Assembly (NCBI GenBank): GCA_038323465.1
Contig: JBBQGX010000002.1
Location: 132 to 64,131 of the forward strand
DNA length: 64,000 nt
Direction: 5' to 3'
Origin: Minisyncoccia bacterium
Lineage (GTDB): Bacteria; Patescibacteriota; Minisyncoccia; Phycocordibacterales; UBA9973
Part shown: positions 14,764-54,952 of the stretch, in pieces
Layout of the letters: each line of letters starts with the position of its first letter
Numbering within the stretch: the stretch's first letter is position 1
Notes under the pieces: generated by a model
Database searches by the model: none
Told to the model about the DNA's origin: nothing
What the model saw: only the letters and a program-made list of their open reading frames with translations
Program-made: the position numbers and the translations under genes

Positions 14764-17700
14764 TTGAGGAAAACATTATTTTGTAAAAATAAATTAGAAA
14801 GTTTAAAAGAAAAAATTCCACCGAAAGTCGAGGGTGGGATTTTTTCTTTTCCATCAAAAGATTGGATTGATAATTTTTTAAGATTTGAAAAATTATCAGA
14901 GACAGACAGAGATGGTAAAAATGAAATTATTCAAACAAAAATATTAACAACTGACCAAAATAAAAAAATGATTAAAGAAAACAAAAACAAAAATATAGAA
15001 GGAAAAATATTTCTTAAAAACCAAATTTCCCAAATTTATAAAAATTCTGGGATATTAAAAACTTCAGCTTTCTTTCTTTTTATTTTGGTTTCTTTTTATT
15101 TTGGTTTAAATAAAGTAGAAGCAGTTGATACTACATCTCCCGATGTAAACATCACATATAGTGAAAATCCAGTTGGAGCAACAAACGAAATAATTACAGC
15201 AACATATTCAGAACCGATAACAAGTGCTCCAACTATTAGTATCAATCAGCCCGGAACAGCAGACGTAACAAACGCACCAATGATAGCTCCTGGAAGTGTG
15301 TGGACTCCAAGACTCGCGGCGGAAGCAAATTATTGGAGTTCAGTTACTTATGGTAATGGACTCTTTGTGGCAGTGGCTAGCAACGGTACAAATAGAGTTA
15401 TGACTTCTCCTGATGGAATTACTTGGACAGCAAGAATGGCAGCTGAAGCAAATAGTTGGAATTCCATCACTTATGGTAATGGACTCTTTGTGGCAGTGGC
15501 TAGCAATGGTACAAATAGAGTTATGACTTCTCCTGATGGAATTACATGGACTGCACGAACTGCCGCTGAAGTAAATGGTTGGTATTCTGTAACTTATGGT
15601 AATGGTTTGTTTGTTTCAGTTTCTTATAATGGCACAAACAGAGTCATGACATCTGCCGATGGAATTACTTGGACAGCAAGAATGGCAGCTGAAGCAAATC
15701 AGTGGATGTCAGTTGCTTACGGTAATGGACTCTTTGTGGCCGTTGGTTCTGGTGGGACAAATAGAGTTATGACTTCTCCTGATGGAATTACTTGGACAGC
15801 AAGACAAACCCCTGAAGTAAATGGTTGGTATTTTGTAACTTATGGTAATGGTTTGTTTGTTTCAGTTTCTTACGGTGCTGCAAGTAAAATAATGACTTCC
15901 CCTGACGGGATAACTTGGACGGTGATGAGTATTACCTCATATTATCTAACAAATATAACTTATGCTCAAGGGGTTTTTATAGCACTTGGTCAGTTTGGAA
16001 CACTCATAACATCTACCGATGGTATCACTTGGAATACCAGAGTATGTGAGTATGGTAGTTGGAATTCAGTCGTTTATGGTAATGGTTCCTTTGTAGCAGT
16101 ATCCTCTGATGTAATAAATAGAGTTATGACTTCTCCTGTAAGTTATAGTTATAATTATAATGTAATTATTGCAAATGGAACTAATTACTTAGATGGAATT
16201 ACAACTGTAAGTTTATCCACAACAGCAGACGCAGCAGGAAATATTTCAAATCCTCCAACAAATAATACATTTACTATTGATACAACAGGTCCAACGGTGG
16301 CTCTATCTTATAGTGCAAATTCGGTAAAAGCCGGAAATCAAGTAATTACGGCTACATATTCAAGCCCTATACTAGGAACACCGTTGATTAGTATCAATCA
16401 ACCTGGATCTATAGATATATCAAATGCTTCAATGTCAGGAAGTGGGGTAGTGTGGACTTATAATTATATAGTGAATACTACAAATGGAAATACTTATATA
16501 GATGGTATTTCGAATGTTAGTTTATCTATAGTGACTGATGCCACTTTTCATTCTTCATCTTTACCAACAAATAATTCTTTTATTATTGATACTATAGCTC
16601 CTATACCAACTATTACTCAAACATCCAACCCTGCAAAAGTTGGAACGAATACAATTACAGCTAAATATCTTGAAGCTCTTACAAACACTCCTACTATTAA
16701 TATAGATCAACCAGGCACAACTGATATAAGCAATGTAACAATGAACAAAACAAATATGACCGGAGGTTGGTCTATTGGTTCTGGTGGATTACAATCTTCA
16801 ACTTGGAAGTCTTTGATTTATGGTAATGGTATTTATGTAGCTGTTTCTTCTGATGGTACAAATAGAGTCGCGACAAGTACTGATCCTACGTTGAATATTT
16901 GGAGTTTACAAAATGTAGCAGAATCAAATAATTGGCAATCTGTCACCTATGGTAATGATCAATTTGTAGCTGTTGCTAGTAGTGGAACAAACAGAGTTAT
17001 GACATCTCCTGATGGAATCACTTGGGCAACAAGAACGGCTGTTGAAGCAAATCAGTGGAGGTCAATTACATATGGTAATGGTATCTTTGTAGTTGTTGCT
17101 GATTCTGGAACAAACAGAGTTATGACATCTCCTGATGGAATTACTTGGACAGCACGATCTGCTTCATCGATAAGTAGTTGGTATAGTGTCGCTTACGGAA
17201 ATGGTCAATTTGTGGCTGTTGCTTATAATGGTACAGATAGAGTTATGACATCACCAGATGGAATTACTTGGACTTCTCGTACTGCATCTGCAACAAATAG
17301 TTGGCAATCTGTTACTTACGGAAATGGTCAATTTGTGGCAGTTGCTAGTAGTGGATCAAACCTAGCTATGACATCACCAGATGGAATTATTTGGACAGGA
17401 AGATCATTGGGTAGTTCTGGTTGGCAAGCTGTCACCTACGGAGATGGTTTCTTTGTAGCTGTTGGCTCTAACTATAAAGCAATATCACAAGATGGTATAA
17501 GTTGGCAGTCCTCAGTATCGGGATATTTATTTAATTCTATTATTTATAATAACGGTTTTTTCTTTGCAGTTGGATACGGTGTACATACATTTTCTCCTAC
17601 ATCTATTTATTCCTATACTTATACTGTTAACCAAGCAGATGGTAGTACATATGTAGACGGTAATGCGAATATAAGTTTATCTACTTCAACAGATTTAACA

Positions 17701-20700
17701 GGGAATACAAATACTGCTCCTATAAGTTCATTTAGGGTTGATACCACTCCACCAACTACTGATATAACTTATAGCTCAAATCCTGCGGACGTAGGAATAA
17801 ATACAATAACAGCAAATTATTCTGAACCTATATCCTCAACTCCAACTATTAGTATAAATCAACCCGGCTCAATTGACATAATAAATGCTTCAATGGTTAC
17901 ACCTGTAAGTGTATGGACACCTGTATCTGTTCCTCTAAGTAGTTGGTATTCGATTACTTATGGTAATGGTTTGTTTGTGGCTGTTGGTGGTGGAATTAAT
18001 TCAGTTATGACATCTTCTGATGGCATTAATTGGATTATTAGGGAAGGGATAATAGGAAAAAACTGGTCTTCTGTAACTTATGGTAATGGACTATTTGTGG
18101 CAGTTGGATTTTCTGGAGTCATGACCTCACCCGATGGAATCACTTGGATATCAAGATTTGGTGTGACATTATCTTCTGTTGCTTTTGGTAATGGTTTGTT
18201 TGTAAGTATAAATACTAGTAATGGTAATATTGCGACTTCCTCTGATGGAATAACTTGGACATATAGAATAATAGAAAGTTCTAGTCAATGGAATTCAATT
18301 GCTTACAATAATGGACTTTTTGCTGTTGTTAATAATAATGGAGGAGTTGGAGGAGTTAGGACTTCTCCTGATGGTATAAATTGGACACTAAGAGATTCAC
18401 CTAGTGGTAATTGGCGGGCCATAAATTCTGGTAATGGTATTTTTGTAGCAGTTGGTCAAGGGGTAGTTATGACTTCACTTGATGGAATAACTTGGATATC
18501 AAGAGCTGGTGTTTCTTTTGGTACTTGGCAATCTATTACCTATGGTAACGGTCTTTTTGTAGTTGTTGGTGATGGTGGCACAAATAGAGTTATAACATCA
18601 ACTGATGCAATTACTTGGACAAAACGAACAGCGTCAGAAGCAAATCAATGGGTTTCTGTAACCTATGGTAATGGCCAATTTATTGCAGTTTCTTCAAGTG
18701 GCACAAATCGAGTCATGACATCACATTCTGGATATATATATAATTATAATGTTAATAAAGCAGACGGTAGTACATATGTAGATGGAAATGCAACTGTCAG
18801 TCTATCTGCGACGGTAGATCTAGCTGGGAATCCAACCGAAGCTCCAACTGGTACAACATTTGCAATTAATACTTCCAACCCAACTGTGGCACTTTCATAC
18901 AGTTCAAGTCTTGCAAAAGCTGGCACAAATATTATTACCGCTACATATGATAAAGCTGTGACTTCAGCTCCAGCCATAAGTATTGATCAGCCTGGTATTA
19001 CAGACATCACAAGTGTCCCAATGACAGGAAGCGGTAAAGTTTGGACATATAGTTATAATGTGAATTCTGCCAATGGAAGTAATTACATAGATGGAGTTGC
19101 AACAGTCGGTCTCTCGACTGTAACTGATGCGGGTGGAAATACCGCACTTTCTCCAACCAATGAAATCTTTACAATTGATACAACAAGTCCAAATGCATCT
19201 ATCACATACTTGCCAAATCGACCAGTCAAAAGTGGGGAAGCTCTAACTATCACCGCAGAACTTAGTGAACCACTTGCCGATACACCTATACTTAAAATCG
19301 GAATCACTGGAGTTAACACACTAGTTGCGACTGACATGACAAAAATAGATTCGACTCACTATTCATATATTTATACAGTTGGGATAGGGGATGGAGATGC
19401 AACCATCTCTCTATCTATGGCTACAGATGTTGTTACTAACATTGTCACATCTATACCTATCTCAGGGGCAACATTTAAAATAGACAATATATTACCTACC
19501 GGAACTATCGAAGCCGTATGTACCACTATTGGGAATGGATGTATTGAGACAGGGAGAATAGCAACTCCACAAGAATCATATCAAGTCGGAATTATTAAAG
19601 GTACAGCATCAGATGAAGTCGGGGGTACGGAGGTCAGTACAGTTGCGATTTCTATCCAAGATACAACTACAAATAAGTGGTATAGTGGAACTTCATTTAC
19701 GGATGCCAGTGATACATATTTAAATACTACTGGTACAATCACATGGAGTTATAATTTTTCTTCAGTACCTCTAATTATCGATCATATTTATTTAATTAAT
19801 ATTAAAATTACAGACGGAGCAACCAATACAAAAATTATTCCTCTCTCGTTTAAATTCACCAACTCTCCACCAGTAGTTTCAAATGTCACAGCCAGTCAAG
19901 CACTCGGAGGTGGAATCGTATCTGTAACATATGATGTGACAGATATAGAATCCTCCCAAACGACGAACTCACTGTTCTATAGTGTTGGAACTACTCTCAC
20001 AGGAGTTATCACCGATTCAGCCTCATCCCTTATCGTTTCTGACGGAACTAATTTCCCAACTACTGGAACTATTTTAATCGGGGATGAAATGATTGGGTAC
20101 ACTAAATCAGGTAATAATTTTACGATAACTAGAGGTGTACTTTCAACCACGGCATTTTCTCATACAACAGGAAGTCCAATATATATTAAAGCTGTCACAA
20201 CTGTAGGTACTGGAATCGGATTATCTAATAAAGGAACTGGGAAGACAATATCATGGAACGCTCAAACTGAAGCTATTGATTATGAGAGTTTAACAGGAGT
20301 GATTAAAGTAGTTGCCAATGATGGCGCGGCTGGTTCGATGATCGGATCATTAGATTCAACACCATTTATTATAGATGCAGCTGCTCCTATTCCCTCTGCT
20401 CCTCTTACTTTCGATGCTGGTACAGCAGGGATTGCAGGAAGTGCCACTATTACTATCCCAATGCCGACCGACATCTCAGCAATTGAATACAAAATAAGTG
20501 ATGACGCCAATATTGAAACAAATGTAAATACGACTGGTTGGGTTACGATAACTGGAAGTACAACAATTCCATGGACTTTTGATTCCGATATTGAATTGAA
20601 GAATTTGAAATTACAATTTAGAGATGCTTATGGAAATACAACAGTCGAAGAAACAATTTCGACTCAAACGCCAATCCCATCTTCTTCTTTCTTGGTACAA

Positions 20701-23700
20701 GATACTTCAAATATTTCAGCAACAGTTCCATATTATGATATGTATATCGGATGGCAGGCAGCATCTATTAATGGTTTCTCATCATACAAATTAGAATACG
20801 CCACATCAAATGACAATATAAATTATGGAAGCTATACATCTATTTCAGACTCTGGACTTTCAACTTATTCTACTAACTACTATATTCATCGAAACCTAAC
20901 GCCTAATACTTTCTACCGTTATCGTCTAGGAGTTATTGGAACAAACGGGAATACAACAGTCAGATCGAATTCGTATATCACAACCAAGACTGATGGAGTT
21001 CAAAACTATGATGAAGGGGGAGGTGGCTCTGTGGCTACAGCTCCAAAAGTTGAGAATGTCGTCGCTACCCAAGGGGATGACAAACAAGTCTCTATCTCAT
21101 ACAAACTAACCGATATTTCTTTTACAAAAAAAGTTAATCCCTCATATGAATCATATTTGTTTTACAATATTGGTATCACACTCCCAACTAATCTATTAAC
21201 AGTGAATACTTTAGCAGTTTCAGATGCTTCTAAATTAAAATTATCAGGATATATTCTCGTTAACAATGAAGTCATTAAATATACTGGAATAACTGGCAAC
21301 AACCTAACGGGTCTTGTTCGGGGAACTTGGCCAGGTACCAGTGGACGTAGTACTAGAACCAACAATTCATTTTTCTCAGGGACCCCTGTTTGGATCCTCG
21401 CCTCTGGTACAACAAATATTTTAAATACCGAAACTGCTATCTCTGTTGGACAAATAGGAACAACAATTTGGAATACATACGAAGAACCAATCCTCGCTGG
21501 ATCAAGTTATCCAAATGTTGGAATTAAAATATTGGTTCATGACAATCAAGATGCACTTTCAGGACCACTTTCAAATCAAAATGATTTCTCAGAAAATGGG
21601 ATTATAAGTACTCTTGATCTAACTGCGCCAACTATTTCATTTAGTGTAATAGAGGCAACAGGAGCAGAAAGTGTCACACCCGTCTTACTGACTATCAATC
21701 TAGCTAGAGCCTACCCACAAGATACTACAGTCTCATATTCATTAACTGGTACTGCTACAAGTGCAGACTATACTTTGGCTAACGGCACGATTACCTTTAC
21801 AACAGGGGAAACAACGAAAGAAATATCAATTCCAATTATCAATGATTCTTTGAAAGAATTGGATGAGACTATCATTGTGACTCTATCAAGTCCTATCAAC
21901 GGAGTACTCGGCGCGGGTACTACATATACATATACTATTACCGACGATGATCAATTAGGTAATATTCAATTTACTAATACTTCATCAGAAAAAGGGGAAG
22001 CTAGTGTCACTCCTTTTGATATTGAAATATCACTTTCAGAAATTTCAGGAACAGATACAACTGTTTCGTATACTATAAGTGGGACTGCAACTAATGAAGA
22101 AGATTATACTTTAGTAGATGGAGTTGTTACCATTTTAGCTGGGGAGACAACAACTACTCTTACGATTCCTGTGATTAACGATACCTTAAAAGAAGAAGCG
22201 GAAACTGTGATTTTGACTCTCTCAAATCCAACCAATGCAACTCTCGGAGTAAATACAATTTATACTTATACTATTTTAGATGACGATAATTTAGCATTAA
22301 TCGGATTTGGGACAGCGACAAGTGAAGGCTTGGAATCTCTAACGCCCGTTAATATTCCAATTTCAATCTCCTCTATTTATCCAGAGGATATTAGTGTCTC
22401 ATATACAGTCGGAGGTGGAACTGCGACAGATGGTGGGATTGATTACACTTTATCAAACGGCATAGCGACAATTGTAAAAGGACAAACGATGACAACAATT
22501 CCGATCATTATTAACAATGATAAATTATCAGAAGAAAGTGAGACAATTATTATTACTTTAACTGACCTTATAAATGCTACTTTCGGAGATAATACAACAT
22601 TTACTTATACAATTTTAGATGATGAAATTGCCGTCAGTGAATTAGCTGGGACTAATGTTAAATCAACTTCAGCTCTGATCACTTGGAATACAGGAGACTT
22701 CGCGGGCTCAGTTGTTGAGTATGGAATAATTGCTCCTGAGATAGAAGGAGCATATAATTTGAAAAAAGAAAAAACAGAAAAAGTTCTCGGCCACCGTGTT
22801 TATCTCAGTGGATTAACACCATTAACAAAATATTACTTCAAATCTTCCTCAACTAATTTAGCTGGAGAAACAACTACATCTATATCTGATTTTACAACAA
22901 CTTCTGGCCCGGTTATCTCATCTGTTGCTCAAGGAATAATTACTGATACTGGAGTTACTGTTACTTGGGTAACAGACACGCCTTCTAATTCATATATTTC
23001 ATTTGGAATAGATGAAAATTTAATTGTTCCTAACAGAGCTGGTAATACAGAACTTGTAGTAGATCATACTGTAATTCTCTCTAATTTAGATTCAGAAAAA
23101 ACATACTACTATCTAATTCAATCAACAGATGAAGCCGGAGGAATCAGTGAAGATGCTAACGGAGGAACATTTTACAACTTTACAACAATCTCAGATGCAA
23201 CCGCTCCAATAGTTACAGATATCGCTACTCCAATCATCACTTCTGATTCTGTCGCTATTGTTTGGAAAACAAACGAACAATCAAATAGTCAGGTTCTCTA
23301 CAGTACAACGACAGGAGGGTACAATGAGAGTTCAACTCTAGGAGCAAATCAAGTACTCAATCACTTAGTCACAGTTGTTGGACTAACTCCAGAAACTACT
23401 TATTACTATGTCATTAAATCAGCTGACCAAAAGAGCAACTTAACTACAACAGAAGAGCAAACATTTAAAACAACTAAAGTCAAAGAAACAGTGATCTATT
23501 CAGGTGGGGGATCAGTGGGAGTTCTCCAATCAATATATGATTCTCTTTTAAAAGAGAATGAAGAAAATAAAATAAAATTAAAACTTCAAGATACAAATGC
23601 CCCAATTATTTCGAATGTAACAATATCAAATATTACTCCATTTAGTGTGACAGTTATGTTTGAGACGAACAAGGAGACGATAGCTTTTGTAAAATATGGA

Positions 23701-24921
23701 AAAGAAATATCATATGGAGATATTGCGGGAGATGATAATTTAAAAATTTCGCACTCAATAATACTTCGAGGTTTGACTATGGGTACGGAATACCATATCA
23801 AGGTTTCAGTTATGGATAAATTTGGAAACATTGGAACAGGAGAAGATCAAACCTTCAAAACCAAATACTTAACCGAAAAACTTGATGAACTTAAAAAGAT
23901 AGATAACATCGAACAATTCCAGAAAGAAATTGAAGCGACGATTGAATCAATCTTACCATCCCTTGTTCCTCCGTTTGTTGGTAAGCCAGAGGTTACAGAG
24001 ATCACAGAAAACAGTGCAAAAGTGAGCTTTAAAACAAACATTAAAGCCTTTCCAGTTGTAAACTATACTACTGAGATAGAGTACGATATCACTAAAGAAA
24101 ATCCATATAGTGGGGAAATCTCAGATACTACTACTAAAAATGTAAACCATACTTTACAAATCCTTGGTTTAAAACCTAATACAAAATATCACATCATGGC
24201 TAAAGCCTTCTCCCTCCCTCAGGTGATAGGTAAGTCAGATGATATAACTTTCATCACAGCAGCTTCCAAGATTCGTGGTTCTATTGTGGAAAAGAAAAAT
24301 GATTCATTTACCGTTGTTTGGAATACTGATACCCCAACTTCTTCAATCGTAGAATACAAAAATATTAAAACTGGAAAAACCTCTCGTTTGACAGATGATG
24401 CCAAGAATTATTCTCACTCAGTAAAAGTAGAGAATCTTACTCCTGGAACATCTTATGCTGTCCGAATTTCAGGTCTTAATATCGCTGGGAACATAGTAGA
24501 AGCAGGGGAATCAATCATGGTTAATACTGGCACTGATACTATTGCACCATCTATTGTGAGCTTCAAAGTAGATAGTGCTCTTGTCCTTGGACGAACAGAT
24601 CGTACTCAAACGATTGTCTCTTGGAAGACTGATGAACCATCCACATCTATAGTATATTTTGAAGAAGGCTCTGGTTCACCAGATAAAGCTCTTGTGAATA
24701 AGCAAGAAGACAATGAATTGACTATGAATCACGTCATGATGCTTACAACTCTTAAACCAGGAACGGTTTATCGTCTACAGGTTGTCTCTGTTGATGATGC
24801 TAATAATCAAACAAAATTACCAGTTAGAACAATTATTACCCCAAAGAGAACTGAGTCGATTGTGGATGTGATCTTCAAGAACTTTGATGAGACATTTAAT
24901 TTCATTAAAAATGTGAGGTAA
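14764..24921 (+). CDS. Giant (3385 aa) secreted/surface protein: Ig-like modules, three Asp-box beta-propeller arrays, four Calx-beta domains, about seven FN3-like domains
   Basis: A single uninterrupted ORF. The track start is TTG at 14764. The ATG at 14968 would give an N-terminal hydrophobic anchor/signal (TSAFFLFILVSFYFGLNKVEA). Repeats are listed as separate features. Confidence 0.9.
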   Translation: MRKTLFCKNKLESLKEKIPPKVEGGIFSFPSKDWIDNFLRFEKLSETDRDGKNEIIQTKILTTDQNKKMIKENKNKNIEGKIFLKNQISQIYKNSGILKTSAFFLFILVSFYFGLNKVEAVDTTSPDVNITYSENPVGATNEIITATYSEPITSAPTISINQPGTADVTNAPMIAPGSVWTPRLAAEANYWSSVTYGNGLFVAVASNGTNRVMTSPDGITWTARMAAEANSWNSITYGNGLFVAVASNGTNRVMTSPDGITWTARTAAEVNGWYSVTYGNGLFVSVSYNGTNRVMTSADGITWTARMAAEANQWMSVAYGNGLFVAVGSGGTNRVMTSPDGITWTARQTPEVNGWYFVTYGNGLFVSVSYGAASKIMTSPDGITWTVMSITSYYLTNITYAQGVFIALGQFGTLITSTDGITWNTRVCEYGSWNSVVYGNGSFVAVSSDVINRVMTSPVSYSYNYNVIIANGTNYLDGITTVSLSTTADAAGNISNPPTNNTFTIDTTGPTVALSYSANSVKAGNQVITATYSSPILGTPLISINQPGSIDISNASMSGSGVVWTYNYIVNTTNGNTYIDGISNVSLSIVTDATFHSSSLPTNNSFIIDTIAPIPTITQTSNPAKVGTNTITAKYLEALTNTPTINIDQPGTTDISNVTMNKTNMTGGWSIGSGGLQSSTWKSLIYGNGIYVAVSSDGTNRVATSTDPTLNIWSLQNVAESNNWQSVTYGNDQFVAVASSGTNRVMTSPDGITWATRTAVEANQWRSITYGNGIFVVVADSGTNRVMTSPDGITWTARSASSISSWYSVAYGNGQFVAVAYNGTDRVMTSPDGITWTSRTASATNSWQSVTYGNGQFVAVASSGSNLAMTSPDGIIWTGRSLGSSGWQAVTYGDGFFVAVGSNYKAISQDGISWQSSVSGYLFNSIIYNNGFFFAVGYGVHTFSPTSIYSYTYTVNQADGSTYVDGNANISLSTSTDLTGNTNTAPISSFRVDTTPPTTDITYSSNPADVGINTITANYSEPISSTPTISINQPGSIDIINASMVTPVSVWTPVSVPLSSWYSITYGNGLFVAVGGGINSVMTSSDGINWIIREGIIGKNWSSVTYGNGLFVAVGFSGVMTSPDGITWISRFGVTLSSVAFGNGLFVSINTSNGNIATSSDGITWTYRIIESSSQWNSIAYNNGLFAVVNNNGGVGGVRTSPDGINWTLRDSPSGNWRAINSGNGIFVAVGQGVVMTSLDGITWISRAGVSFGTWQSITYGNGLFVVVGDGGTNRVITSTDAITWTKRTASEANQWVSVTYGNGQFIAVSSSGTNRVMTSHSGYIYNYNVNKADGSTYVDGNATVSLSATVDLAGNPTEAPTGTTFAINTSNPTVALSYSSSLAKAGTNIITATYDKAVTSAPAISIDQPGITDITSVPMTGSGKVWTYSYNVNSANGSNYIDGVATVGLSTVTDAGGNTALSPTNEIFTIDTTSPNASITYLPNRPVKSGEALTITAELSEPLADTPILKIGITGVNTLVATDMTKIDSTHYSYIYTVGIGDGDATISLSMATDVVTNIVTSIPISGATFKIDNILPTGTIEAVCTTIGNGCIETGRIATPQESYQVGIIKGTASDEVGGTEVSTVAISIQDTTTNKWYSGTSFTDASDTYLNTTGTITWSYNFSSVPLIIDHIYLINIKITDGATNTKIIPLSFKFTNSPPVVSNVTASQALGGGIVSVTYDVTDIESSQTTNSLFYSVGTTLTGVITDSASSLIVSDGTNFPTTGTILIGDEMIGYTKSGNNFTITRGVLSTTAFSHTTGSPIYIKAVTTVGTGIGLSNKGTGKTISWNAQTEAIDYESLTGVIKVVANDGAAGSMIGSLDSTPFIIDAAAPIPSAPLTFDAGTAGIAGSATITIPMPTDISAIEYKISDDANIETNVNTTGWVTITGSTTIPWTFDSDIELKNLKLQFRDAYGNTTVEETISTQTPIPSSSFLVQDTSNISATVPYYDMYIGWQAASINGFSSYKLEYATSNDNINYGSYTSISDSGLSTYSTNYYIHRNLTPNTFYRYRLGVIGTNGNTTVRSNSYITTKTDGVQNYDEGGGGSVATAPKVENVVATQGDDKQVSISYKLTDISFTKKVNPSYESYLFYNIGITLPTNLLTVNTLAVSDASKLKLSGYILVNNEVIKYTGITGNNLTGLVRGTWPGTSGRSTRTNNSFFSGTPVWILASGTTNILNTETAISVGQIGTTIWNTYEEPILAGSSYPNVGIKILVHDNQDALSGPLSNQNDFSENGIISTLDLTAPTISFSVIEATGAESVTPVLLTINLARAYPQDTTVSYSLTGTATSADYTLANGTITFTTGETTKEISIPIINDSLKELDETIIVTLSSPINGVLGAGTTYTYTITDDDQLGNIQFTNTSSEKGEASVTPFDIEISLSEISGTDTTVSYTISGTATNEEDYTLVDGVVTILAGETTTTLTIPVINDTLKEEAETVILTLSNPTNATLGVNTIYTYTILDDDNLALIGFGTATSEGLESLTPVNIPISISSIYPEDISVSYTVGGGTATDGGIDYTLSNGIATIVKGQTMTTIPIIINNDKLSEESETIIITLTDLINATFGDNTTFTYTILDDEIAVSELAGTNVKSTSALITWNTGDFAGSVVEYGIIAPEIEGAYNLKKEKTEKVLGHRVYLSGLTPLTKYYFKSSSTNLAGETTTSISDFTTTSGPVISSVAQGIITDTGVTVTWVTDTPSNSYISFGIDENLIVPNRAGNTELVVDHTVILSNLDSEKTYYYLIQSTDEAGGISEDANGGTFYNFTTISDATAPIVTDIATPIITSDSVAIVWKTNEQSNSQVLYSTTTGGYNESSTLGANQVLNHLVTVVGLTPETTYYYVIKSADQKSNLTTTEEQTFKTTKVKETVIYSGGGSVGVLQSIYDSLLKENEENKIKLKLQDTNAPIISNVTISNITPFSVTVMFETNKETIAFVKYGKEISYGDIAGDDNLKISHSIILRGLTMGTEYHIKVSVMDKFGNIGTGEDQTFKTKYLTEKLDELKKIDNIEQFQKEIEATIESILPSLVPPFVGKPEVTEITENSAKVSFKTNIKAFPVVNYTTEIEYDITKENPYSGEISDTTTKNVNHTLQILGLKPNTKYHIMAKAFSLPQVIGKSDDITFITAASKIRGSIVEKKNDSFTVVWNTDTPTSSIVEYKNIKTGKTSRLTDDAKNYSHSVKVENLTPGTSYAVRISGLNIAGNIVEAGESIMVNTGTDTIAPSIVSFKVDSALVLGRTDRTQTIVSWKTDEPSTSIVYFEEGSGSPDKALVNKQEDNELTMNHVMMLTTLKPGTVYRLQVVSVDDANNQTKLPVRTIITPKRTESIVDVIFKNFDETFNFIKNVR
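15296..16140 (+). repeat. Asp-box (BNR) propeller blade array 1, ~132-nt period
   Basis: Blades W-x-S-V-T-Y-G-N-G-L-F-V-A-V...N-R-V-M-T-S-P-D-G-I-T-W-T contain S-x-D-x-G-x-T-W. Adjacent blades (for example 15350-15440 versus 15480-15570) are nearly identical at the nucleotide level. Confidence 0.8.
16762..17600 (+). repeat. Asp-box propeller blade array 2
   Basis: Same blade consensus (YGNGQFVAVASSGTNRVMTSPDGITWT) repeated about 6-7 times. Confidence 0.8.
17905..18730 (+). repeat. Asp-box propeller blade array 3
   Basis: Same blade consensus with more divergent blades (TSSDGINW, TSPDGITW, TSLDGITW, TSTDAITW). Confidence 0.75.
21631..22630 (+). repeat. Four tandem Calx-beta domains
   Basis: Four units of roughly 80-95 aa of the type V-S-Y-x-x-x-G-T-A-T-x-x-x-D-Y-T-L-x-x-G-x-x-T-F...I-x-I-I-N-D-x-L-K-E-x-x-E-T-I-I-x-T-L-S-x-P. 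Confidence 0.75.
22631..24840 (+). repeat. About seven FN3 / purple-acid-phosphatase-N-like domains
   Basis: Recurrent pattern S-A-x-I-x-W-x-T-x-x-P-x-x-S-x-V-x-Y-G...H-x-V-x-L-x-G-L-x-P-x-T-x-Y-Y-Y. Confidence 0.65.
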
Positions 24922-29826: not shown

Positions 29827-29864
29827 AAAAATTTGTGGAAAATTTAAATTTTTCACAAATTTTT
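29827..29864. terminator. Spacer-less AT-only palindrome (19-bp arms, one G-T pair)
   Basis: aaaaatttgtggaaaattt / aaatttttcacaaattttt. Located 35 nt after the stop of paralog 1. Confidence 0.4.
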
Positions 29865-30118: not shown

Positions 30119-32461
30119 ATGCCTTCAAAAAAGAAAGTTGTTTCAAAAAAAGAAGAAGGGAAGGTCGCAAGTTTAAAGAAAGAAATTGTTTCTGAAAAAA
30201 AATTAATCAAGGATAGTTTTATTAAAGGCGTTATAAAAAGAAACGGAGTGACTGTTCCTTTTGATATCGACAAAGTTACGAATGCTATTAATAAAGCCAT
30301 GCTTGCAAGCGGTGAAGGTTCGATGAAAGATGCAGAGCGTGTGGCGGAGAGAGTACAAACAGAAATAGTCAAAATAGCCAAGAAATATAAGAACTTTATA
30401 CCAACAGTTGAAGGTGTTCAGGATACAGTTGAGCAAGAATTGATGCTTTCGGATTTTGTTCGAACTTCTAAAAATTATATTCTCTATCGTGAGGAGCGGG
30501 CTCGTCTACGTTCTCACTCTGTCGTTGTGCCTGAGCATTTAAAAAAATTAACAGAAGAAAGTAAAAAATATTTTCGAAACCCACTTTCTGAATTCGTTTA
30601 TTATCGTAGTTATGCAAAATGGATTAAAGAGGAAGGTCGTCGAGAAACTTGGATTGAGACGATTGATCGTTATGTAGAGTTCATGAAAAAGAATCTCGGC
30701 AGTATGATGAAAGATAGTGAATACGAAGAAGTGCGTGAGGCAATATTAAAACAAGAATCGATGCCTTCAATGAGACTACTCCAATTTGCGGGTGCTGCTG
30801 CCGAGAAGACAAATGTCTGTGCTTATAATTGTTCCTTTGTGGCTCCATCTAAATTTCAAGACTTTGGTGAAATTATTTATATCTCAATGTGTGGCACCGG
30901 TGTCGGATTCTCGGTTGAAAGTAAAAATATTCAATCTCTTCCTCAAATTAAAAATCAAACAGGTAAAAAATTTCCAACTTATGTAATACCTGATACTAAA
31001 GAAGGTTGGGCTGATGCTTTTGTCTATGGTATGAAGACTTGGTTTGATGGAAATGACGTCGAATTTGATTTCTCACTTCTTCGTCCAGCAGGAGCACGCC
31101 TTGAAACAATGGGAGGAAAGAGTTCTGGTCCAAAACCATTGGTAGATTTACTTGGTTTTACTCGAGAACGTATAATTCGCCGGCAAGGACGACATCTTCG
31201 TAATATTGATGCTCATGATATCATTTGTAAGATAGGGGAATGTGTTGTCTCTGGAGGAGTTCGCCGTAGTGCCCTTATCTCGCTTTCTGATCTCGATGAT
31301 CAGGAGATGCGTGATGCCAAGAATGGTCAATTTTGGCTCAATGAAGGGCAGAGAATGTTAGCTAACAACTCTGCAGTTTATAATACAAAACCCACCGAAA
31401 CTGAATTTCTAAAAGAGTGGATTGCTTTGATGGAATCAGGTAGTGGTGAGAGAGGAATATTTAATCGTGGTTCACTTTACAAATCACTCCCTAAGAGAAG
31501 ACTTGAAAAATCAGCTGACTACATCGGAGAGATGGGGACTAACCCATGCGGTGAAATTATTCTAAGATCAAAACAATTTTGTAATCTATCAGAAGTTGTA
31601 GCACGCGATGATGATACGGAAGAATCATTGATGAGGAAAATTCGCGTCGCTACTATTATTGGAACTTATCAATCAACTTTGACTAAGTTTGGATATTTAT
31701 CAAAAGAGTGGAAGGATAATTGTGATGAAGAAAGACTTTTGGGTGTCTCAGTGACAGGTCAGTGGGATTCAAAAATCTCACGTGACCCCGTAATGCTTTC
31801 AAAACTTCGACTTGAAACTATTCGTGTCAATAAAATATATGCCAAGCGATTTGGAATTGGTGAATCTACTTGTATTACCGCCGTTAAACCATCCGGCACT
31901 GTATCTCAAACTGTAGACTGTGCTTCTGGTATGCATCCACGGCATGCTCCTTACTATATAAGACGTATTCGTATTTCGGCTACTGACTCACTTTTCAAAA
32001 TGATGAAAGACCAAGGAGTACCATATCACCCAGAAGTAGGACAGACTTTGGATAATGCTAATACTTTCGTTTTGGAGTTCCCAATGAAAGCACCTGATGA
32101 TGCAATCTGTAAAGATGATATCACAGCACTCGATCAGCTAGAACATTGGAAAGTTGTCAAAGTAAATTATACTGAACATAATCCTTCCGTAACTATTTCT
32201 GTCGGCGAGAACGAATGGATCAAAGTCGCTCATTGGTTGTATCAAAATTGGGATATTGTGGGAGGATTATCATTTCTACCAAGAACCAACCATGTTTATC
32301 AACTCGCTCCGTATGAAGCAATAGATGAAAAAACATACAAAGAGCTTACAAGTAAAATGCCAGATTTTGATTTCTCTAAAATTGTAACTTATGAATTAAG
32401 GGATGAAACAGAAGTAAAGAGGGAACTTGCTTGCGTTGCTGGTGTTTGTGATATAGTATAG
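30119..32461 (+). CDS. nrdJ: Adenosylcobalamin-dependent ribonucleotide reductase (class II, RTPR-like) with N-terminal ATP-cone
   Basis: ATP-cone (VIKRNGVTVPFDIDKVTNAINKA...). Active-site GTNPCGEIILRSKQFCNLSEV. C-terminal redox pair CVAGVC. 780 aa. Confidence 0.8.
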   Translation: MPSKKKVVSKKEEGKVASLKKEIVSEKKLIKDSFIKGVIKRNGVTVPFDIDKVTNAINKAMLASGEGSMKDAERVAERVQTEIVKIAKKYKNFIPTVEGVQDTVEQELMLSDFVRTSKNYILYREERARLRSHSVVVPEHLKKLTEESKKYFRNPLSEFVYYRSYAKWIKEEGRRETWIETIDRYVEFMKKNLGSMMKDSEYEEVREAILKQESMPSMRLLQFAGAAAEKTNVCAYNCSFVAPSKFQDFGEIIYISMCGTGVGFSVESKNIQSLPQIKNQTGKKFPTYVIPDTKEGWADAFVYGMKTWFDGNDVEFDFSLLRPAGARLETMGGKSSGPKPLVDLLGFTRERIIRRQGRHLRNIDAHDIICKIGECVVSGGVRRSALISLSDLDDQEMRDAKNGQFWLNEGQRMLANNSAVYNTKPTETEFLKEWIALMESGSGERGIFNRGSLYKSLPKRRLEKSADYIGEMGTNPCGEIILRSKQFCNLSEVVARDDDTEESLMRKIRVATIIGTYQSTLTKFGYLSKEWKDNCDEERLLGVSVTGQWDSKISRDPVMLSKLRLETIRVNKIYAKRFGIGESTCITAVKPSGTVSQTVDCASGMHPRHAPYYIRRIRISATDSLFKMMKDQGVPYHPEVGQTLDNANTFVLEFPMKAPDDAICKDDITALDQLEHWKVVKVNYTEHNPSVTISVGENEWIKVAHWLYQNWDIVGGLSFLPRTNHVYQLAPYEAIDEKTYKELTSKMPDFDFSKIVTYELRDETEVKRELACVAGVCDIV

Positions 32462-32473
32462 TTTTTGGTTACG

Positions 32474-32542
32474 CAGAAACATGAAATTTTTCCCGCTTTA
32501 CCCCAAAGGGGCCCTACACGGATAAAAATTTTCATGTTTCTG
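32474..32542 (+). other. Palindrome with conserved 33-nt GC-rich central core (copy 1)
   Basis: Arms cagaaacatgaaattttt and aaaattttcatgtttctg. Core cccgctttaccccaaaggggccctacacggata at 32492-32524 is 32/33 identical to 53208-53240. Confidence 0.85.
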
Positions 32543-32558
32543 TTTCACCATTTTATTT

Positions 32559-33077
32559 ATGAAAAAACAAATTAAATATATAATAGTCTTTTTATCTGTC
32601 TTTGCGATTAGACTTGTGCCATTTCGTGCTCCAAATGTGGAGCCAATAATGACAGTGGTTATGCCTTTTGGAAAAGTTTACGGAGGGTTATATTCCTTTG
32701 CCTTTGGTTTCTTCAGTATTGTGTTTTTTGATTCTATTACGTCAGGATTTGGTGTCTGGACTCTTGTGACAGCTCTTTCTTATGGTGCGCTAGGATTAGG
32801 AGCTAACTATTATTTCAAAAATAGATCAGGACGTGTAAATTATGCTATATATGCAGTTGTCGCTACTATATTTTATGATGCTATTACAGGACTTACTATT
32901 GGACCACTTTTCTTTCATCAATCATTTATGGTTTCTTTGATTGGACAGATTCCTTTTACTGCTCTTCACTTGCTAGGTAATGTATCTTTTGCTATAGTAC
33001 TCTCACCAGTGATAGAAAAGTGGTTAGTTAAAGAAGAAAAGTTAGTTACTGTGGGTAAAGTTGTGCTGGTAAGTTAG
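32559..33077 (+). CDS. Small (172 aa) 5-6 helix membrane protein, possibly a vitamin-uptake (ECF S-component-like) protein
   Basis: Entirely hydrophobic, with the N-terminal motif RLVPFRAPNVEPIM. The function is suggested only by position between the B12-dependent RNR and the cobalamin riboswitch operon. Confidence 0.35.
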   Translation: MKKQIKYIIVFLSVFAIRLVPFRAPNVEPIMTVVMPFGKVYGGLYSFAFGFFSIVFFDSITSGFGVWTLVTALSYGALGLGANYYFKNRSGRVNYAIYAVVATIFYDAITGLTIGPLFFHQSFMVSLIGQIPFTALHLLGNVSFAIVLSPVIEKWLVKEEKLVTVGKVVLVS

Positions 33078-33098
33078 TTGTATTTTAAAATTTAAATT

Positions 33099-33184
33099 AA
33101 TGTATTTGGAAGTGAGGTTAAATTCCTCCACTGTGCCGCAACGGTAATACCCCGAAAAGGGGATAAGTCCGGTCTTAATACATT
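33099..33184 (+). promoter_or_regulatory. Cobalamin riboswitch aptamer (short form lacking the long peripheral extension)
   Basis: P1 aatgtatt/aatacatt. Core TGGAAGTGAGGTTAAATTCCTCCACTGTGCCGCAACGGTAA matches the conserved GGGAA..GGTG.AA.TCC..C.G..CCGC.AC.GTAA block. Followed by AAGTCCGG (compare AAGCCAGGA). The downstream genes are DUF4430-type B12 binders. Confidence 0.7.
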
Positions 33185-33227
33185 GATGTTTCCCGAGCAG
33201 GAGAATATCTCTAAAATATTTAGACAT

Positions 33228-33276: not shown

Positions 33277-33780
33277 ATGATAAAGAAAAATAAAAAGATA
33301 TTAATAGGAATAGGATTAATTTTAATAATTATTTCTGGATTTCTATTTTTGAATAGAGAAAAACAAATACCCACAACTACTCTATTAGAGAAAAGTTATA
33401 GTCAAGAAAAAATAGACAAAGGAATACAAATCCCCAGTCAGAAGATAAAAAAAATAGAAACGCTGTCCCAACTAGAAAATGTTAAAAGAATTAAAGTATC
33501 GTTAATTTTAAAAGATAAAACATATAATACTGAAATTAAAGAAGGTAGTTCTGTTTTTGAAACCATGTTAAATATTGAAAAAGAAAGTACAAAAGAAAAT
33601 CAATTTAGTTTTAAATATATAGAAAATTTAGGAATGGGGAGTTTTGTAAATGAAATAAATGGGGTGGTCGGTTCTCCAGGGGCCTATTGGATATATTATG
33701 TGAATGGTAAAGAAGCAGGAATAGGAGTGTCGAAATATATATTAAAAGAGGGGGATATTATTAATTGGAAACAAGAATAA
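33277..33780 (+). CDS. Membrane-anchored DUF4430 (transcobalamin beta-domain-like) protein
   Basis: N-terminal TM helix. C-terminal GSFVNEINGVVGSPGAYWIYYVNGKEAGIGVSKYILKEGDIINW fits the DUF4430 pattern. Confidence 0.7.
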   Translation: MIKKNKKILIGIGLILIIISGFLFLNREKQIPTTTLLEKSYSQEKIDKGIQIPSQKIKKIETLSQLENVKRIKVSLILKDKTYNTEIKEGSSVFETMLNIEKESTKENQFSFKYIENLGMGSFVNEINGVVGSPGAYWIYYVNGKEAGIGVSKYILKEGDIINWKQE

Positions 33781-33784
33781 AAAA

Positions 33785-35329
33785 ATGAAAAACAAAATTT
33801 TAATAATTACATTTACAATATTATCACTTTTTATTTTTAATTTTGCTTATGCAGATACTAATATTCATTTGCAGATTAAAACGACAACAGATTTATTTAA
33901 TCAAACCATTACTGTTGCTTCGTGTGATAGTGATAACGATATAGTAACTCCCGATCTGACAACTCCTTATTGTGCTATAAAGAACAAGACATCATTGCAA
34001 AATGATTGGTCTTTTGGAGAATTTGGAGCATTTTTAAATTCACTTAATAATATTTCAGGATCTACAACAAAAGATAAAGATGGCAATCCCGTCTATCACT
34101 ATTGGAGTTGGTCTTTAAATAATGAGATGGCGATGGAAGCTCTAAATGTGTATCAATTAAAAGAAAATGATTCTATCTTGTTGGAATTTATTGATCCACA
34201 AGAACCAACTCCATTGCCTGAAGTCTTGAAAGAACCCACTCATATTTCTCATTCTTCTGGTGGTTCATATGTAACGCAAGTTAAAAAAGTAGTATTTGAT
34301 GTTAATAAAGCAATTGAGTTTTTGTTATTAAATCAAAAAAAAGATGGATCCTTTGCTTCACCGATGTATACAGATTGGGTCGCTATTGCTCTTGGTGCTA
34401 TCGATAATTCAACATTAAAATCAAACATTTTAAATTATTTAAAATCCAATCCAATCCAATCATCTCTCCTTACTGATTACGAGAGACGTGCTATGGCCCT
34501 TTTGGCACTCGGTGTAAATCCTTATGATGGAACAGAAGTAAATTATATTAAAAAAATTATTGAAAGTTTTGATGGAGTACAATTTGGTGATGCGACTATG
34601 ATCAATGATGATATCTTTGCTTTGGTTGTACTGCAAAATGCTGGTTATCATATAAATGATGAAATAATTAAAAAAGATGTTACTTATATTATTTCTAAAC
34701 AAGAGAAAAATGGTGGATGGGGGAGTGTTGATATGACTTCCGCGGCGATCATGTCGATAAAGGAATTCAAAGATATCTCTGGCACCTCAGAGAGTCTCAA
34801 GAATGCAGAGAATTATTTGATTGGAGAAAAAAAATCAGATGGAGGATTTTCGAATTCTTTTTCCACTTCTTGGGTTTTGCAAAGCTTATCAGATGATAGT
34901 AGATTTATAAATGCTGAAGAATATTTAATAAAAAATCAACAAGCAGATGGAGGATTTGAAGATGTTTCATCTGATATAAATACTAGAGTTTGGGCGACGG
35001 CTTACGTTTTACCTGCTATTTTACATAAATCGTGGAATGATATTTTAGTTGATTTTCCAAAACAAGTAGAAAAAGAAAAGACTGATAAAATTATAGAAAG
35101 TATTTTTATTCCTTCATCTCTCGAAGTGGTGATAAAAAAGACTCCACGTAATAATTCTAATTTAACTATTACTAAAACTCCTGTCATAATAGAAATTATT
35201 GAAAATCAAAATCAAAATCAAAATCAAAAAGAGAATCAGAATATCTTTAAAATTAAGGAAGTTTCTAATTTTAAACGTACATGGAAAGCTATTAAATCAC
35301 CATTTGTTTGGCTTTGGTATCGGCTTTAA
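33785..35329 (+). CDS. Secreted protein: DUF4430-like domain followed by a prenyltransferase/terpene-cyclase-like alpha/alpha toroid (permuted transcobalamin-like)
   Basis: Signal peptide. HYWSWSLNNEMAMEALNVYQLKENDSILLEF is DUF4430-like. Then repeats KDGSFASP..DW, KNGGWGS, SDGGFSNS..TSW and ADGGFED typical of alpha/alpha toroids. Confidence 0.6.
   Translation: MKNKILIITFTILSLFIFNFAYADTNIHLQIKTTTDLFNQTITVASCDSDNDIVTPDLTTPYCAIKNKTSLQNDWSFGEFGAFLNSLNNISGSTTKDKDGNPVYHYWSWSLNNEMAMEALNVYQLKENDSILLEFIDPQEPTPLPEVLKEPTHISHSSGGSYVTQVKKVVFDVNKAIEFLLLNQKKDGSFASPMYTDWVAIALGAIDNSTLKSNILNYLKSNPIQSSLLTDYERRAMALLALGVNPYDGTEVNYIKKIIESFDGVQFGDATMINDDIFALVVLQNAGYHINDEIIKKDVTYIISKQEKNGGWGSVDMTSAAIMSIKEFKDISGTSESLKNAENYLIGEKKSDGGFSNSFSTSWVLQSLSDDSRFINAEEYLIKNQQADGGFEDVSSDINTRVWATAYVLPAILHKSWNDILVDFPKQVEKEKTDKIIESIFIPSSLEVVIKKTPRNNSNLTITKTPVIIEIIENQNQNQNQKENQNIFKIKEVSNFKRTWKAIKSPFVWLWYRL
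35203..35226 (+). repeat. (AAATCA)4 in-frame hexanucleotide repeat encoding NQNQNQNQ
   Basis: Four perfect tandem units inside 33785-35329. Confidence 0.9.
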
Positions 35330-48374: not shown

Positions 48375-49496
48375 ATGAAATCAATAAAAGACATAGAAAA
48401 TTTGAAAGGAAAGAAAGTGGTTGTTCGAGTAGATTATAATGTTCCTATGGATGGCGATAAAATAACAGATGATTTTCGTATTAGGGCATCATTACCTACT
48501 ATCGAATATTTACAGAAGAAGGGGGCTATTGTAGTACTACTAGCTCATATAGGGGACGATGCGACTAGTAGTTTAAAACCAGTAGCGATAAGACTTAAAA
48601 AATTTATTTCAAATCTTAATTTTATTGAAACTTCTATTTTTTCAGATAATACAGAAAAAATTGTAAATAATTTAAAGAGTGGAGATGTGGTACTACTTGA
48701 AAATCTTCGCCGAGAAATAGGGGAGAAGAAAAATGCACCGTCTTTTGCGAGAGCTCTTTCACGATACGGAACTATCTTTGTAAATGATGCATTTTCAGTC
48801 TCACATCGTCCCCATGCTTCCATCGTAGGGATTACGAAATACCTACCAGGCTATGCTGGGTTACAAATGATAGATGAAGTTAATCATTTATCAAAAGCTT
48901 TTAATCCAAAACATCCATTTTTATTTATTCTTGGTGGTGCTAAATTTGAAACAAAAATTCCACTCATAAAGAAATTCCTTCGTGACGCAGATCATGTCTT
49001 TATAGGGGGAGCACTTGCCAATGATTTCTTTAGAGCAAAGGGATATACTGTTGGCACATCACTAGTAAGTGATGGAAATATTTCCATAAAACCTTTTGCA
49101 AAAAGTAGTAATTTGATAATTCCTATTGATGTGATTGCAAGTAAAGACGGAAAGACTCGCGATATTAAACCAAGTGATGTTGCATCCGATGAATGTATTG
49201 TCGATATAGGTAATGAGACAGTTACTAAATTGGGTGAACTTATCGAGAAAGCAAGTTTTATCCTTTGGAATGGACCACTTGGTAAATATGAAAGTGGATT
49301 TTCTTCATCAACTGAAAAAATATTGAAATTAATTTCAAAAAGTAAAGCCAATAGTGTAATAGGTGGAGGAGATACTGTAGCAATAATTTCTAAATTAAAA
49401 CTCGGTGATAAGCTCGGATTTGTTTCAACTGGGGGAGGGGCGACACTCGATTTCCTTGCAAAAGGAACACTGCCGGGGATTAAAGCATTGAAATAA
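48375..49496 (+). CDS. pgk: Phosphoglycerate kinase
   Basis: VRVDYNVP..., FVNDAFSVSHR, GGAKFETK and the GGGDT/GGGATL motifs. Confidence 0.9.
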   Translation: MKSIKDIENLKGKKVVVRVDYNVPMDGDKITDDFRIRASLPTIEYLQKKGAIVVLLAHIGDDATSSLKPVAIRLKKFISNLNFIETSIFSDNTEKIVNNLKSGDVVLLENLRREIGEKKNAPSFARALSRYGTIFVNDAFSVSHRPHASIVGITKYLPGYAGLQMIDEVNHLSKAFNPKHPFLFILGGAKFETKIPLIKKFLRDADHVFIGGALANDFFRAKGYTVGTSLVSDGNISIKPFAKSSNLIIPIDVIASKDGKTRDIKPSDVASDECIVDIGNETVTKLGELIEKASFILWNGPLGKYESGFSSSTEKILKLISKSKANSVIGGGDTVAIISKLKLGDKLGFVSTGGGATLDFLAKGTLPGIKALK

Positions 49497-49512
49497 AAAT
49501 AAAAATAAATAT

Positions 49513-49547
49513 AAAATACCACACAATCTTCGCTTGCGTGGTATTTT
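49513..49547 (+). terminator. Terminator after pgk
   Basis: aaaataccac / gtggtatttt, a 10-bp stem with a 15-nt loop. Confidence 0.6.
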
Positions 49548-49583
49548 ATATTTATAATCATTTTTTATGTTACAATCATCAAT

Positions 49584-53200: not shown

Positions 53201-53266
53201 AATTCTCCCCGCTTTATCCCAAAGGGGCCCTACACGGATAAGAATTTTATATCTTGTCCTCTTTTC
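53181..53266 (+). other. Perfect 26-bp inverted repeat with conserved 34-nt GC-rich central core (copy 2)
   Basis: Left arm gaaaagaggacaagatataaaattct (includes the comEC stop at 53198-53200). Core ccccgctttatcccaaaggggccctacacggata at 53207-53240. The right arm at 53241-53266 is the exact reverse complement of the left arm. Confidence 0.9.
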
Positions 53267-53278: not shown

Positions 53279-53872
53279 TTATTTTGTATTTTTAAAATTT
53301 TCTTCTATTGCCTCCCAGTTTAAATTTTCAAAAAAGCTTTCTATGTAGTTTTTTTTCTCAGATGGGATATAGTCTAGATAATAAGCATGTTCCCACATAT
53401 CTAGAGCTAAGATAGGGGTGAGGCCTACTAGATGTCCTATATGTTGTTCATCTACCCACTGTGTGATTAATTTGCCAGTCTGTTTATCATAGTAAAGCAT
53501 AGCCCATCCTACACCACGAGTCATAGCTAAAGCTTTGAATTTCTCTAACCATGATTCGAAATCTAACTCACTTTGTGCGATAGCACGTTTTAAGTTAGAT
53601 TCATTTTTTAATTCTTTTCCACCACCTGAGAGTGAAGAGAAGTATATTTCATGATTTCTCATGCCTCCGAATTCAAAAGCAAATCTACGATGAAGCTCAC
53701 TTAGAACATATGCATTCTCAGATTGGTTTTGTTCGTATTCTTTTATTTTATTTAAAACTAGATTAGAATTAGCTACATAACCTTTGTAAAGTTTAAGATG
53801 TTCCTCAATACTCTTAGTACTAATACCTTTTAGTTCCCTTAACTCAAATATTTTTGGTTTAAATGTTTCCAT
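53279..53872 (-). CDS. Fe/Mn-family superoxide dismutase
   Basis: DMWEHAYYLDY (Asp and His ligands), NHEIYF, and an N-terminal His in IEEHLKLY. 197 aa. Confidence 0.85.
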   Translation of the reverse strand: METFKPKIFELRELKGISTKSIEEHLKLYKGYVANSNLVLNKIKEYEQNQSENAYVLSELHRRFAFEFGGMRNHEIYFSSLSGGGKELKNESNLKRAIAQSELDFESWLEKFKALAMTRGVGWAMLYYDKQTGKLITQWVDEQHIGHLVGLTPILALDMWEHAYYLDYIPSEKKNYIESFFENLNWEAIEENFKNTK

Positions 53873-54874: not shown

Positions 54875-54909
54875 AAAACCACAGGTCTTGCTTGTGGTTT
54901 TTTATTTTT
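54874..54909. terminator. Terminator between convergent genes (comEC MBL part and rpmB)
   Basis: aaccacagg-tcttg-cttgtggtt followed by a T run. Confidence 0.7.
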
Positions 54910-54952
54910 GTATTTGAATTTAATTTATTTCCTTGACTCTTGTCACTGTTTA

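Follow-up and report, generated by a model that had tools for sequence, protein, structure and literature searches.

Rickettsia palindromic elements (RPEs) are repeats of ~150 bp that lie between genes and also in frame in unrelated housekeeping genes (PMC10969869). The elements described here resemble RPEs in that they are short palindromic repeats of a small, AT-rich genome that occur between genes as well as in frame in unrelated genes (rnhB, UvrC-like and pepN-like genes), where they add a peptide to the protein, and no transposase is known for them. Whole RPEs are conserved within a family, whereas here only ~33 nt and inner arms of ~8-13 nt are common to the copies, the stem being locus-specific and apparently host-derived. 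The present host belongs to the CPR, a different phylum, and the likeness is thus one of analogy by description and not of membership. Bacterial MITEs (Correia, RUP, SPRITE) are likewise small, non-coding, hairpin-forming sequences with inverted termini, which are dispersed, polymorphic between relatives, sometimes nested, and often terminator-like at gene ends. In contrast to MITEs, the present elements are much smaller, neither a target-site duplication nor a parent IS was found for them, and their conserved part is an asymmetric centre instead of the termini. By analogy, RPEs and bacterial MITEs appear to be the closest described systems, from which the present elements are set apart by their very small common part, their host-derived stem, and a centre that is conserved far beyond the host gene.

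REP sequences, in which GTAG is followed by a hairpin, are extragenic, number hundreds per genome, and are accompanied by a RAYT gene; the arms of REPINs are conserved REPs. Like REPs, the present elements contain a short GC-rich imperfect hairpin that is conserved within a genome and whose subtype appears to be common to the copies of a genome, but they are few, some are genic, and the conserved part is the loop and not the arms. Copy number is low, with two copies in the window (the whole stretch of 64,000 nucleotides that was analysed), and no Y1 transposase domain was detected in the 30 window ORFs scanned. The mobile GC clusters of yeast mtDNA are GC-rich hairpin elements of 30-50 nt in an AT-rich genome that also occur inside genes; they share the GC-rich hairpin, although hosts and sequences are unrelated, and to our knowledge they have not been reported to build long stems from host DNA. 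Integron attC sites have conserved outer R/L boxes and a variable centre, whereas here the architecture is reversed, with a conserved centre and variable outer arms. A solo CRISPR repeat, an integron attC site, a DNA uptake sequence, and an adapter artefact were each ruled out by architecture or copy number. Template-switch mutagenesis at quasipalindromes homogenises and expands the arms of inverted repeats and inverts their spacers (PMC8604942), and such outcomes at inverted repeats are documented in bacteria and yeast by that paper and by PMC8794818, PMC13100816, and PMC7202029. It would explain arm homogenisation, expansion into the flanks, and spacer inversion, but it is a general process and not an element, and it leaves the spread and the conservation of the core unexplained. 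Full-text literature searches returned no description of the core element or of any CPR palindromic repeat family.

The window is cellular DNA of a Nomurabacteria/Paceibacteria (CPR) bacterium; in a protein homology search, its nrdJ protein matched one NCBI protein (P0001) at 100% identity, and the next relatives (83-91% identity) were labelled Nomurabacteria or Paceibacterota. Copy 1 lies between the nrdJ ORF (30119-32461) and an ECF S-component gene (32559-33077). Its left arm, cagaaacatgaaattttt (32474-32491, plus strand), begins at the 13th base past the nrdJ ORF and forms a locus-specific stem. Towards the core it reads AAATTTTT, a stretch similar to the corresponding inner arm sequence in other copies. 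The conserved 33-nt core, CCCGCTTTACCCCAAAGGGGCCCTACACGGATA (32492-32524, plus strand), is of the A type and is followed by a right arm (32525-32542, plus strand) that pairs with the left arm at 17/18 positions, the pairing including an A/T slip of 1 nt. The genes on either side of copy 2 are convergent and encode the ComEC N-terminal part (51902-53200) and superoxide dismutase (SOD; 53279-53872, minus strand). Here, the left arm (53181-53206, plus strand), whose outer 17 nt comprise the terminal ComEC codons (K E D K I) with the stop codon and are thus native to the host, is followed by an extra leading C at 53207 and by a core (53208-53240, plus strand) that is 32/33 identical to that of copy 1, and the right arm (53241-53266, plus strand) is a perfect inverted copy of the left one (26/26). 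The single difference, a C>T change at 53217, retains a G-U pair on this strand. An earlier note on this DNA had described these strings, the two centred palindromes, the recurrence in the same orientation with its additional C (53207-53240), the retained G-U pair, and the unrelatedness of the two sets of arms, and each of these points was reproduced upon re-examination of the sequence and comparison of the arms.

Both cores lie on the same strand, and they differ sharply in composition from their surroundings (cores 59-61% GC, 20/33 bases in copy 1, vs 22-27% in the arms and 33% in the window). A search of the window for the core with at most three mismatches returned exactly two sites, and the same search in 100 dinucleotide shuffles of the window returned none; the two units fold much more stably than shuffled sequences (z = -6.0 and -9.5). 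Transposase, integrase, and reverse transcriptase domains were absent from the 30 window ORFs scanned, and a tRNA/tmRNA scan of the window found nothing.

An AdoCbl (B12) riboswitch (33081-33213, 61 bits in Rfam) is located just downstream of the B12-dependent nrdJ and the ECF S-component gene and upstream of DUF4430/cobalamin-binding-like genes (33277-35329), an arrangement that resembles a gene cluster for the uptake and use of B12. ComEC is divided over two genes (51902-53200, DUF4131 and Competence domains; 53993-54874, Lactamase_B) with SOD between them on the opposite strand, an arrangement that is also present in the relatives L020 and L021. An intergenic hairpin at 2314-2363 has perfect arms of 15 nt (aataaaaggtattta / taaataccttttatt) and a 20-nt loop (CTGCAGGGCTCACTCCGCGA, 70% GC) that partly resembles the 3' half of B-type cores (AGGGCTC...CGCGA); it may be a truncated old copy, but it gave no match to the family HMM. 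An ABC transporter is present as two ORFs (ABC_membrane, 10129-11007; a short ABC_tran, 11035-11613), which in relatives form one ORF of ~592 aa (L008, 5297-7075), and the split may be due to a frameshift, a pseudogene, or an assembly error. The window further contains a 3385-aa ORF (14764-24921) and encodes a 975-aa protein (56130-59057) in which a domain typically found in phage tail fibres, Peptidase_S74 (endosialidase chaperone), is present.

Including the two window copies, 11 full copies were collected from nine genomes or contigs (the window, L001, L002, L006, L007, L011/L015, L016, L019, and L023), with L011 and L015 residing on the same 800-kb scaffold (ANAN16). A 20-mer of the core matched only 2 of 185,579 species genomes, namely L001, a MAG titled Saccharibacteria with a 33/33 identical core, and L002, a Nomurabacteria MAG. 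The pattern used for the metagenome scan contained a 12-N spacer compared with 11 in the core, so that only length variants were recoverable and the census is small; it yielded the length variants L006 and L007, the remainder being chance matches (L003-L005). The loci L011, L015, L016, L019, and L023 were fetched via homologous proteins. Each of the 11 full copies has its core in the middle of a near-perfect inverted repeat, the arms of which measure 17-27 nt and differ per locus. The earlier note had taken the core for a dispersed modular sequence and had asked whether each copy would be centred in an unrelated inverted repeat; its recurrence in unrelated loci and genomes bears this out, and the centring holds throughout. 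Besides the known copies, the family HMM (nhmmer) detected two degenerate copies and no further full copies in 278 kb of fetched Paceibacteria DNA, and four relatives' loci (15-22 kb each) contained none. Scans of IMG/VR viral sequences with the correct-length pattern and a looser core pattern gave no real copies, the viral matches L024 and L025 being chance matches in GC-rich contigs, and blastn against plasmids and phages gave no match.

Part of the copies reside inside protein-coding genes. In L002, the whole 66-nt unit supplies 22 in-frame codons to the RNase HII gene, rnhB (...SKVVAM[ENPNSHRFTPKGPYTDANSDSP]SSLTIFLDGG...). Of 120 RNase HII homologs compared, 70 have 18 or more extra residues at this one site, and 37 have no insert there. 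The insert centres follow the core in different readings: RFTP(K/E)GPY(T/A) (e.g., RFTPKGPYTD) in the A type, RFTLKGSD(T/A) in the B type, RALPS(L/G)RG where the core is frame-shifted, and RVGAPEERVKRE where it is read from the reverse strand (D type); other cores and double inserts occur as well. In the AlphaFold model of the L002 enzyme, the insert is placed between a helix (86-105) and a strand (130-134), and residues 106-124 have a pLDDT below 50 without secondary structure, i.e., the insert is modelled as a low-confidence, disordered loop. At the same rnhB site, the homologs P0122, P0123, P0162, P0196, and P0238 have other insert types. Such other inserts include VRSSDEGGRGARP between the arm peptides EILF and KEF, a 40-aa insert (SGFSVSLQRRET...), and tandem repeats of left-arm-like peptides, which suggests that several unrelated core families and repeated remodelling have met at one rnhB loop.

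An insert-peptide profile was searched against 1.84 billion representative proteins, and in-frame B-type cores are present in two UvrC-like proteins, one with a GIY-YIG domain and one with a UvrC RNase H domain. The pepN-like M1 peptidase gene of L019 contains an in-frame composite element, SALNPLGGTKNELLHSLSGSQSEIADVSLRTGDKGRRG, the interior of which is nearly identical to rnhB double inserts of other genomes (RALPSGRGMKNELLHSSSGSQSEIADVSLRTGDKGRR). The presence of the same composite unit in two unrelated genes (pepN-like and rnhB) is direct evidence of copying between loci. The pepN-like composite (L019, 4190-4400, minus strand) spans ~45 aa and has an apical loop enlarged by further hairpins. 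The same pepN-like gene is split into two ORFs at ~4456-4496, whereas in relatives it is one ORF of ~850 aa.

The origin of the arms can be followed in alleles with and without the element, and sites that lack it do occur in close relatives. In the first pair, the rnhB genes of L017 (without the element) and L019 (with the element) share 88% nucleotide identity and differ by a 66-nt insertion; the former reads ...GGCAAAATTGGATTTTCAAAA|TTCTGAAAC... and the latter ...GGCAAAATTGGATTTTCAAAA[TTTTCG-core-CGAAGATTTTGATAAGCCGATTTTGCC]TTCTGATG.... The 27-nt right arm is an inverted match (23/27) to the sequence upstream of the core, which consists of 21 nt of host DNA and 6 inserted nt. The element-free allele of this pair, P0209, is nested among carrier relatives and may represent a precise loss rather than a never-occupied site, a caveat that leaves copy 2 and the second pair unaffected. 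In this second pair (L022 without and L023 with the element, 86% identity, 75-nt insertion), the L023 arms are complementary at 20/20 positions (GCAAGATCATAAAAATCTTT). In each arm, the 13 nt next to the core have no counterpart in L022 and are similar to the L019 inner arm. By contrast, the outermost 7 nt on the left (codons S-Q-D) belong to gene sequence that can be aligned with the element-free allele, insert-free homologs have similar residues at this place, and the right arm ends in an inverted copy of these 7 nt.

Copy 2 of the window offers a third comparison. The KEDKI tail of ComEC recurs in the closest relative, L020, where the gene end reads ...LKEDKIPTKNLSS, many homologs have similar lysine-rich tails, and the spacing between the ComEC and SOD stop codons is 78 nt in the window vs 20 nt in L020. 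In the right arm of copy 2, the outer 16 nt repeat the end of the ComEC coding sequence in inverted form, and this inverted copy, ATCTTGTCCTCTTTTC, is absent from L020. The aligned alleles indicate that the arms are composite, with a short inner part that travels with the core and an outer part that comes from the adjacent host sequence, which replaces the earlier assumption of ready-made arms. The inner arms of different copies have a short A/T-rich motif in common (AAATTTTY / RAAAATTT), and ~13 nt of the inner arm are common to the copies of the L019 and L023 subfamily. Target-site duplications were not found: two allele comparisons show only a 2-nt TT ambiguity or an imperfect similarity between target and inner arm, and the remaining copies are not bordered by direct repeats. 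The host junction in the two rnhB pairs resembles the inner arm of the element, (T/C)A(T/A)AAAAT, which fits entry through microhomology and is equally compatible with slippage deletions.

Quite probably, the core forms the conserved middle of small, non-coding, hairpin-shaped repeats, a family that is dispersed in Paceibacteria/Nomurabacteria and whose stems have been extended by template switching. Composite arms that co-vary, presence that differs between close relatives, in-frame copies, both orientations, and core conservation above background all speak for this reading. The spreading unit is the GC-rich core together with A/T-rich inner inverted repeats of ~8-13 nt, and the sites entered are gene 3' ends, a tRNA upstream region, and in-frame surface loops of housekeeping proteins. 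After or during insertion, fold-back or template switching at the hairpin would copy the neighbouring host sequence in inverted form, and the stem would grow outward through DNA synthesis on the nascent flank. The same process would keep the arms matched while they drift (homogenisation) and could flip the core. For the arms, we infer this origin from the end products of the process.

Once inserted, the element evolves in place, and its parts do so at different rates. Between L015 and L016, the rnhB gene is 65.5% identical outside the element and 44% at third codon positions, and the arms are 58% identical, whereas the core is identical at 27/27 positions; each genome's own arms are still perfect (19/19 and 20/20). 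For the two arm peptides of 40 inserts, the longest complementary DNA run that they permit has a median length of 23.5 nt (27 being the maximum that can be measured), compared with a median of 9 nt (95th percentile 18 nt) when arms are paired across lineages, and the arms thus co-vary within lineages. According to the earlier note, co-diverging arms would weaken a mobile interpretation. The arms do co-diverge, but evolution in place once the element has inserted explains this better. At the nrdJ 3' site, the window has a core of the A type and L011 one of the B type; their arms show weak similarity, and the outer flanks look homologous in alignment (e.g., TTCACYAT after the right arm). A degenerate antisense relative is present at this site in L008 and none in L009. 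The L008 spacer, which is that of the closest relative's nrdJ 3' end, contains a nested multi-hairpin within 14-nt outer arms (12344-12471), whose minus strand is weakly similar to the core (TTTATCCAAAGGGGG...CCCGACGGGGCGAAAA), and it is probably a degenerate antisense family member at the orthologous site. A and B cores differ at five positions; two of the changes put the apical hairpin into another register, a third lengthens the closing helix by one pair, and identical rnhB arm peptides can carry either core (P0190 vs P0233). In each of the three genomes with two copies, the subtype is common to both (A in the window, B on the ANAN16 scaffold, and a CCCTCTC tip twice in L019), which is suggestive, the genomes being only three.

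Conservation of the core far above the rate of the host gene is unusual for junk DNA and could reflect a host function or recognition by an enzyme; candidate causes are a host function, recognition of the asymmetric loop by an enzyme, and gene conversion among the copies. As a tentative and rather doubtful extension, the core may be the recognition module of a putative structure-specific enzyme, or a recruited host signal, and the element may propagate itself by programmed fold-back synthesis that builds the stem from host DNA. If true, this would define a new class of self-building hairpin element that is actively maintained across Patescibacteria and is not decaying junk. Neither the 30 window ORFs scanned nor the genes listed for the loci that were fetched included an autonomous parent element or a transposase. 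It is unlikely that the core is instead a DNA-level host signal or the recognition site of a dedicated structure-specific enzyme, which is conserved by selection or by enzyme-driven renewal; an HUH/Y1-type nuclease or a replication, segregation, or uptake factor would be examples of the agent. This explanation would account for the unchanged core in host genes of 65% identity, for the subtype common to copies within one genome (window, ANAN16, and L019), and for the use of either orientation. Hairpin-binding enzymes read features such as asymmetric internal loops, and the conserved internal loop of the core is of this kind; the reverse strand of the A type moreover presents GTAG followed by a hairpin, as in REPs. 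However, no candidate enzyme gene is located near any copy, the copies are far sparser than uptake sequences or REPs, and close relatives lack the element at the same sites with no visible replacement.

The predicted fold and the orientation of the copies bear on a possible role in RNA. All copies are predicted to form a long outer stem, a GC closing helix of 3-6 bp, an internal loop that is asymmetric throughout the family (TTTA opposite CYCCKAC), and a GC hairpin of 3-5 bp, whose tip varies (AAA, TAAA, CCCG, TCTCTCC, or a much larger nested insert). In copy 1, the closing helix is predicted between CCG (32493-32495) and CGG (32519-32521), the internal loop between CTTTA and CCCTACA, and the apical hairpin from CCCC (32501-32504), AAA, and GGGG (32508-32511). 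Folding energy cannot identify a functional strand because the antisense strand folds slightly more stably as RNA. The core lies in sense to the flanking gene at the nrdJ copies (window and L011) and in rnhB of L002, L015, L016, and L023, and in antisense in L007 (tig/clpP spacer), L001 (upstream of tRNA-Cys), L019 rnhB, and all D-type rnhB inserts. An apical RNA module tied to one strand is hard to reconcile with copies that face either way with respect to transcription.

It is very unlikely that the core acts in the transcript as a structured, conserved RNA module at the tips of terminator hairpins, for example as a signal for protein binding or processing. Such a module would explain why the core is much more conserved than neutral sites, why helices are kept across variants (a C-G to A-T exchange in L006 and the register shift of the B type), why both C>T changes (window copy 2 and L007) keep G-U pairs on the core-sense strand, and why both window copies lie at gene 3' ends. 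Yet besides the antisense copies, in-frame copies reside inside three kinds of housekeeping gene, and arm mismatches are wobble-compatible on different strands in different copies. A scan of 32300-32700 for intrinsic terminators with loops of 3-8 nt found none, nor a U-tract signature at copy 1. The window stems are A/T-rich, enclose a 33-nt interior, and are followed by the tails TTTCACC and TATCTGC; the window copies are not canonical intrinsic terminators, and, lying at transcript ends, both may be incidental strong hairpins there. In Rfam, only the AdoCbl riboswitch passed the gathering threshold, and E-value scans of both window copies returned generic miRNA-like hairpin noise only, so the core matches no Rfam family; the earlier note had not recognised it as a known RNA family either. 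A resemblance to the twister and preQ1-I riboswitch families was also considered and rejected, neither family appearing in the Rfam scans. The in-frame genic copies and the two orientations equally tell against the option, raised in that note, of an apical RNA module grafted onto terminators.

The other option of the earlier note, in which a 33-nt element would enter exactly the middle of palindromic terminators that were already in place, is highly improbable as well. It draws on the many long palindromes without a core that are found at gene ends in this genome. Two of those listed in the earlier note are present in the window at 29827-29864 and 61128-61173, further ones lie at 49495-49565 and 54862-54914, and genomes of this group seem in general to have long palindromes that overlap coding ends. 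A symmetric target would also account for both orientations, and in L020 a near-perfect palindrome of ~22 bp overlaps the ComEC and SOD stop codons (11283-11340). The empty palindrome that one would look for in a relative is thereby present at the very junction of copy 2, but it differs from the copy 2 arms in sequence and centre. The element-free rnhB alleles, moreover, show no palindrome at the insertion point, the inserted DNA comprises 66-75 nt including arm sequence, and the outer right arm of copy 2 consists of inverted ComEC codons that are absent in the relative. Nor can a terminator pre-exist at the in-frame sites in rnhB, uvrC, and the pepN-like gene. An assembly or sequencing artefact (adapter or fold-back chimera) has practically no chance of being correct: inverted flanks around a constant string do resemble unremoved hairpin adapters, but the arms measure only 17-27 nt with normal syntenic genes continuing on both sides, the element is present in independent NCBI, ENA, JGI, and Logan assemblies, and it evolves with its host while reading frames are kept open.

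As small hairpin repeats with probably template-switched stems, these elements have consequences for the study of the genomes in which they reside. In CPR metagenomes, they can lead to errors in gene calling, in terminator prediction, and in screens for RNA motifs, and they could serve as strain markers. The allele pairs with and without the element are natural comparisons that show a long perfect stem made from host sequence, and the conservation of the core far beyond the host gene calls for an explanation, be it a recognising enzyme, gene conversion, or a host function. The genomes of CPR/Patescibacteria are among the smallest and most streamlined and are generally regarded as repeat-poor. 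Selfish-looking hairpin DNA nevertheless persists in them and adds peptides to essential enzymes, namely RNase HII, UvrC, and an M1 peptidase.
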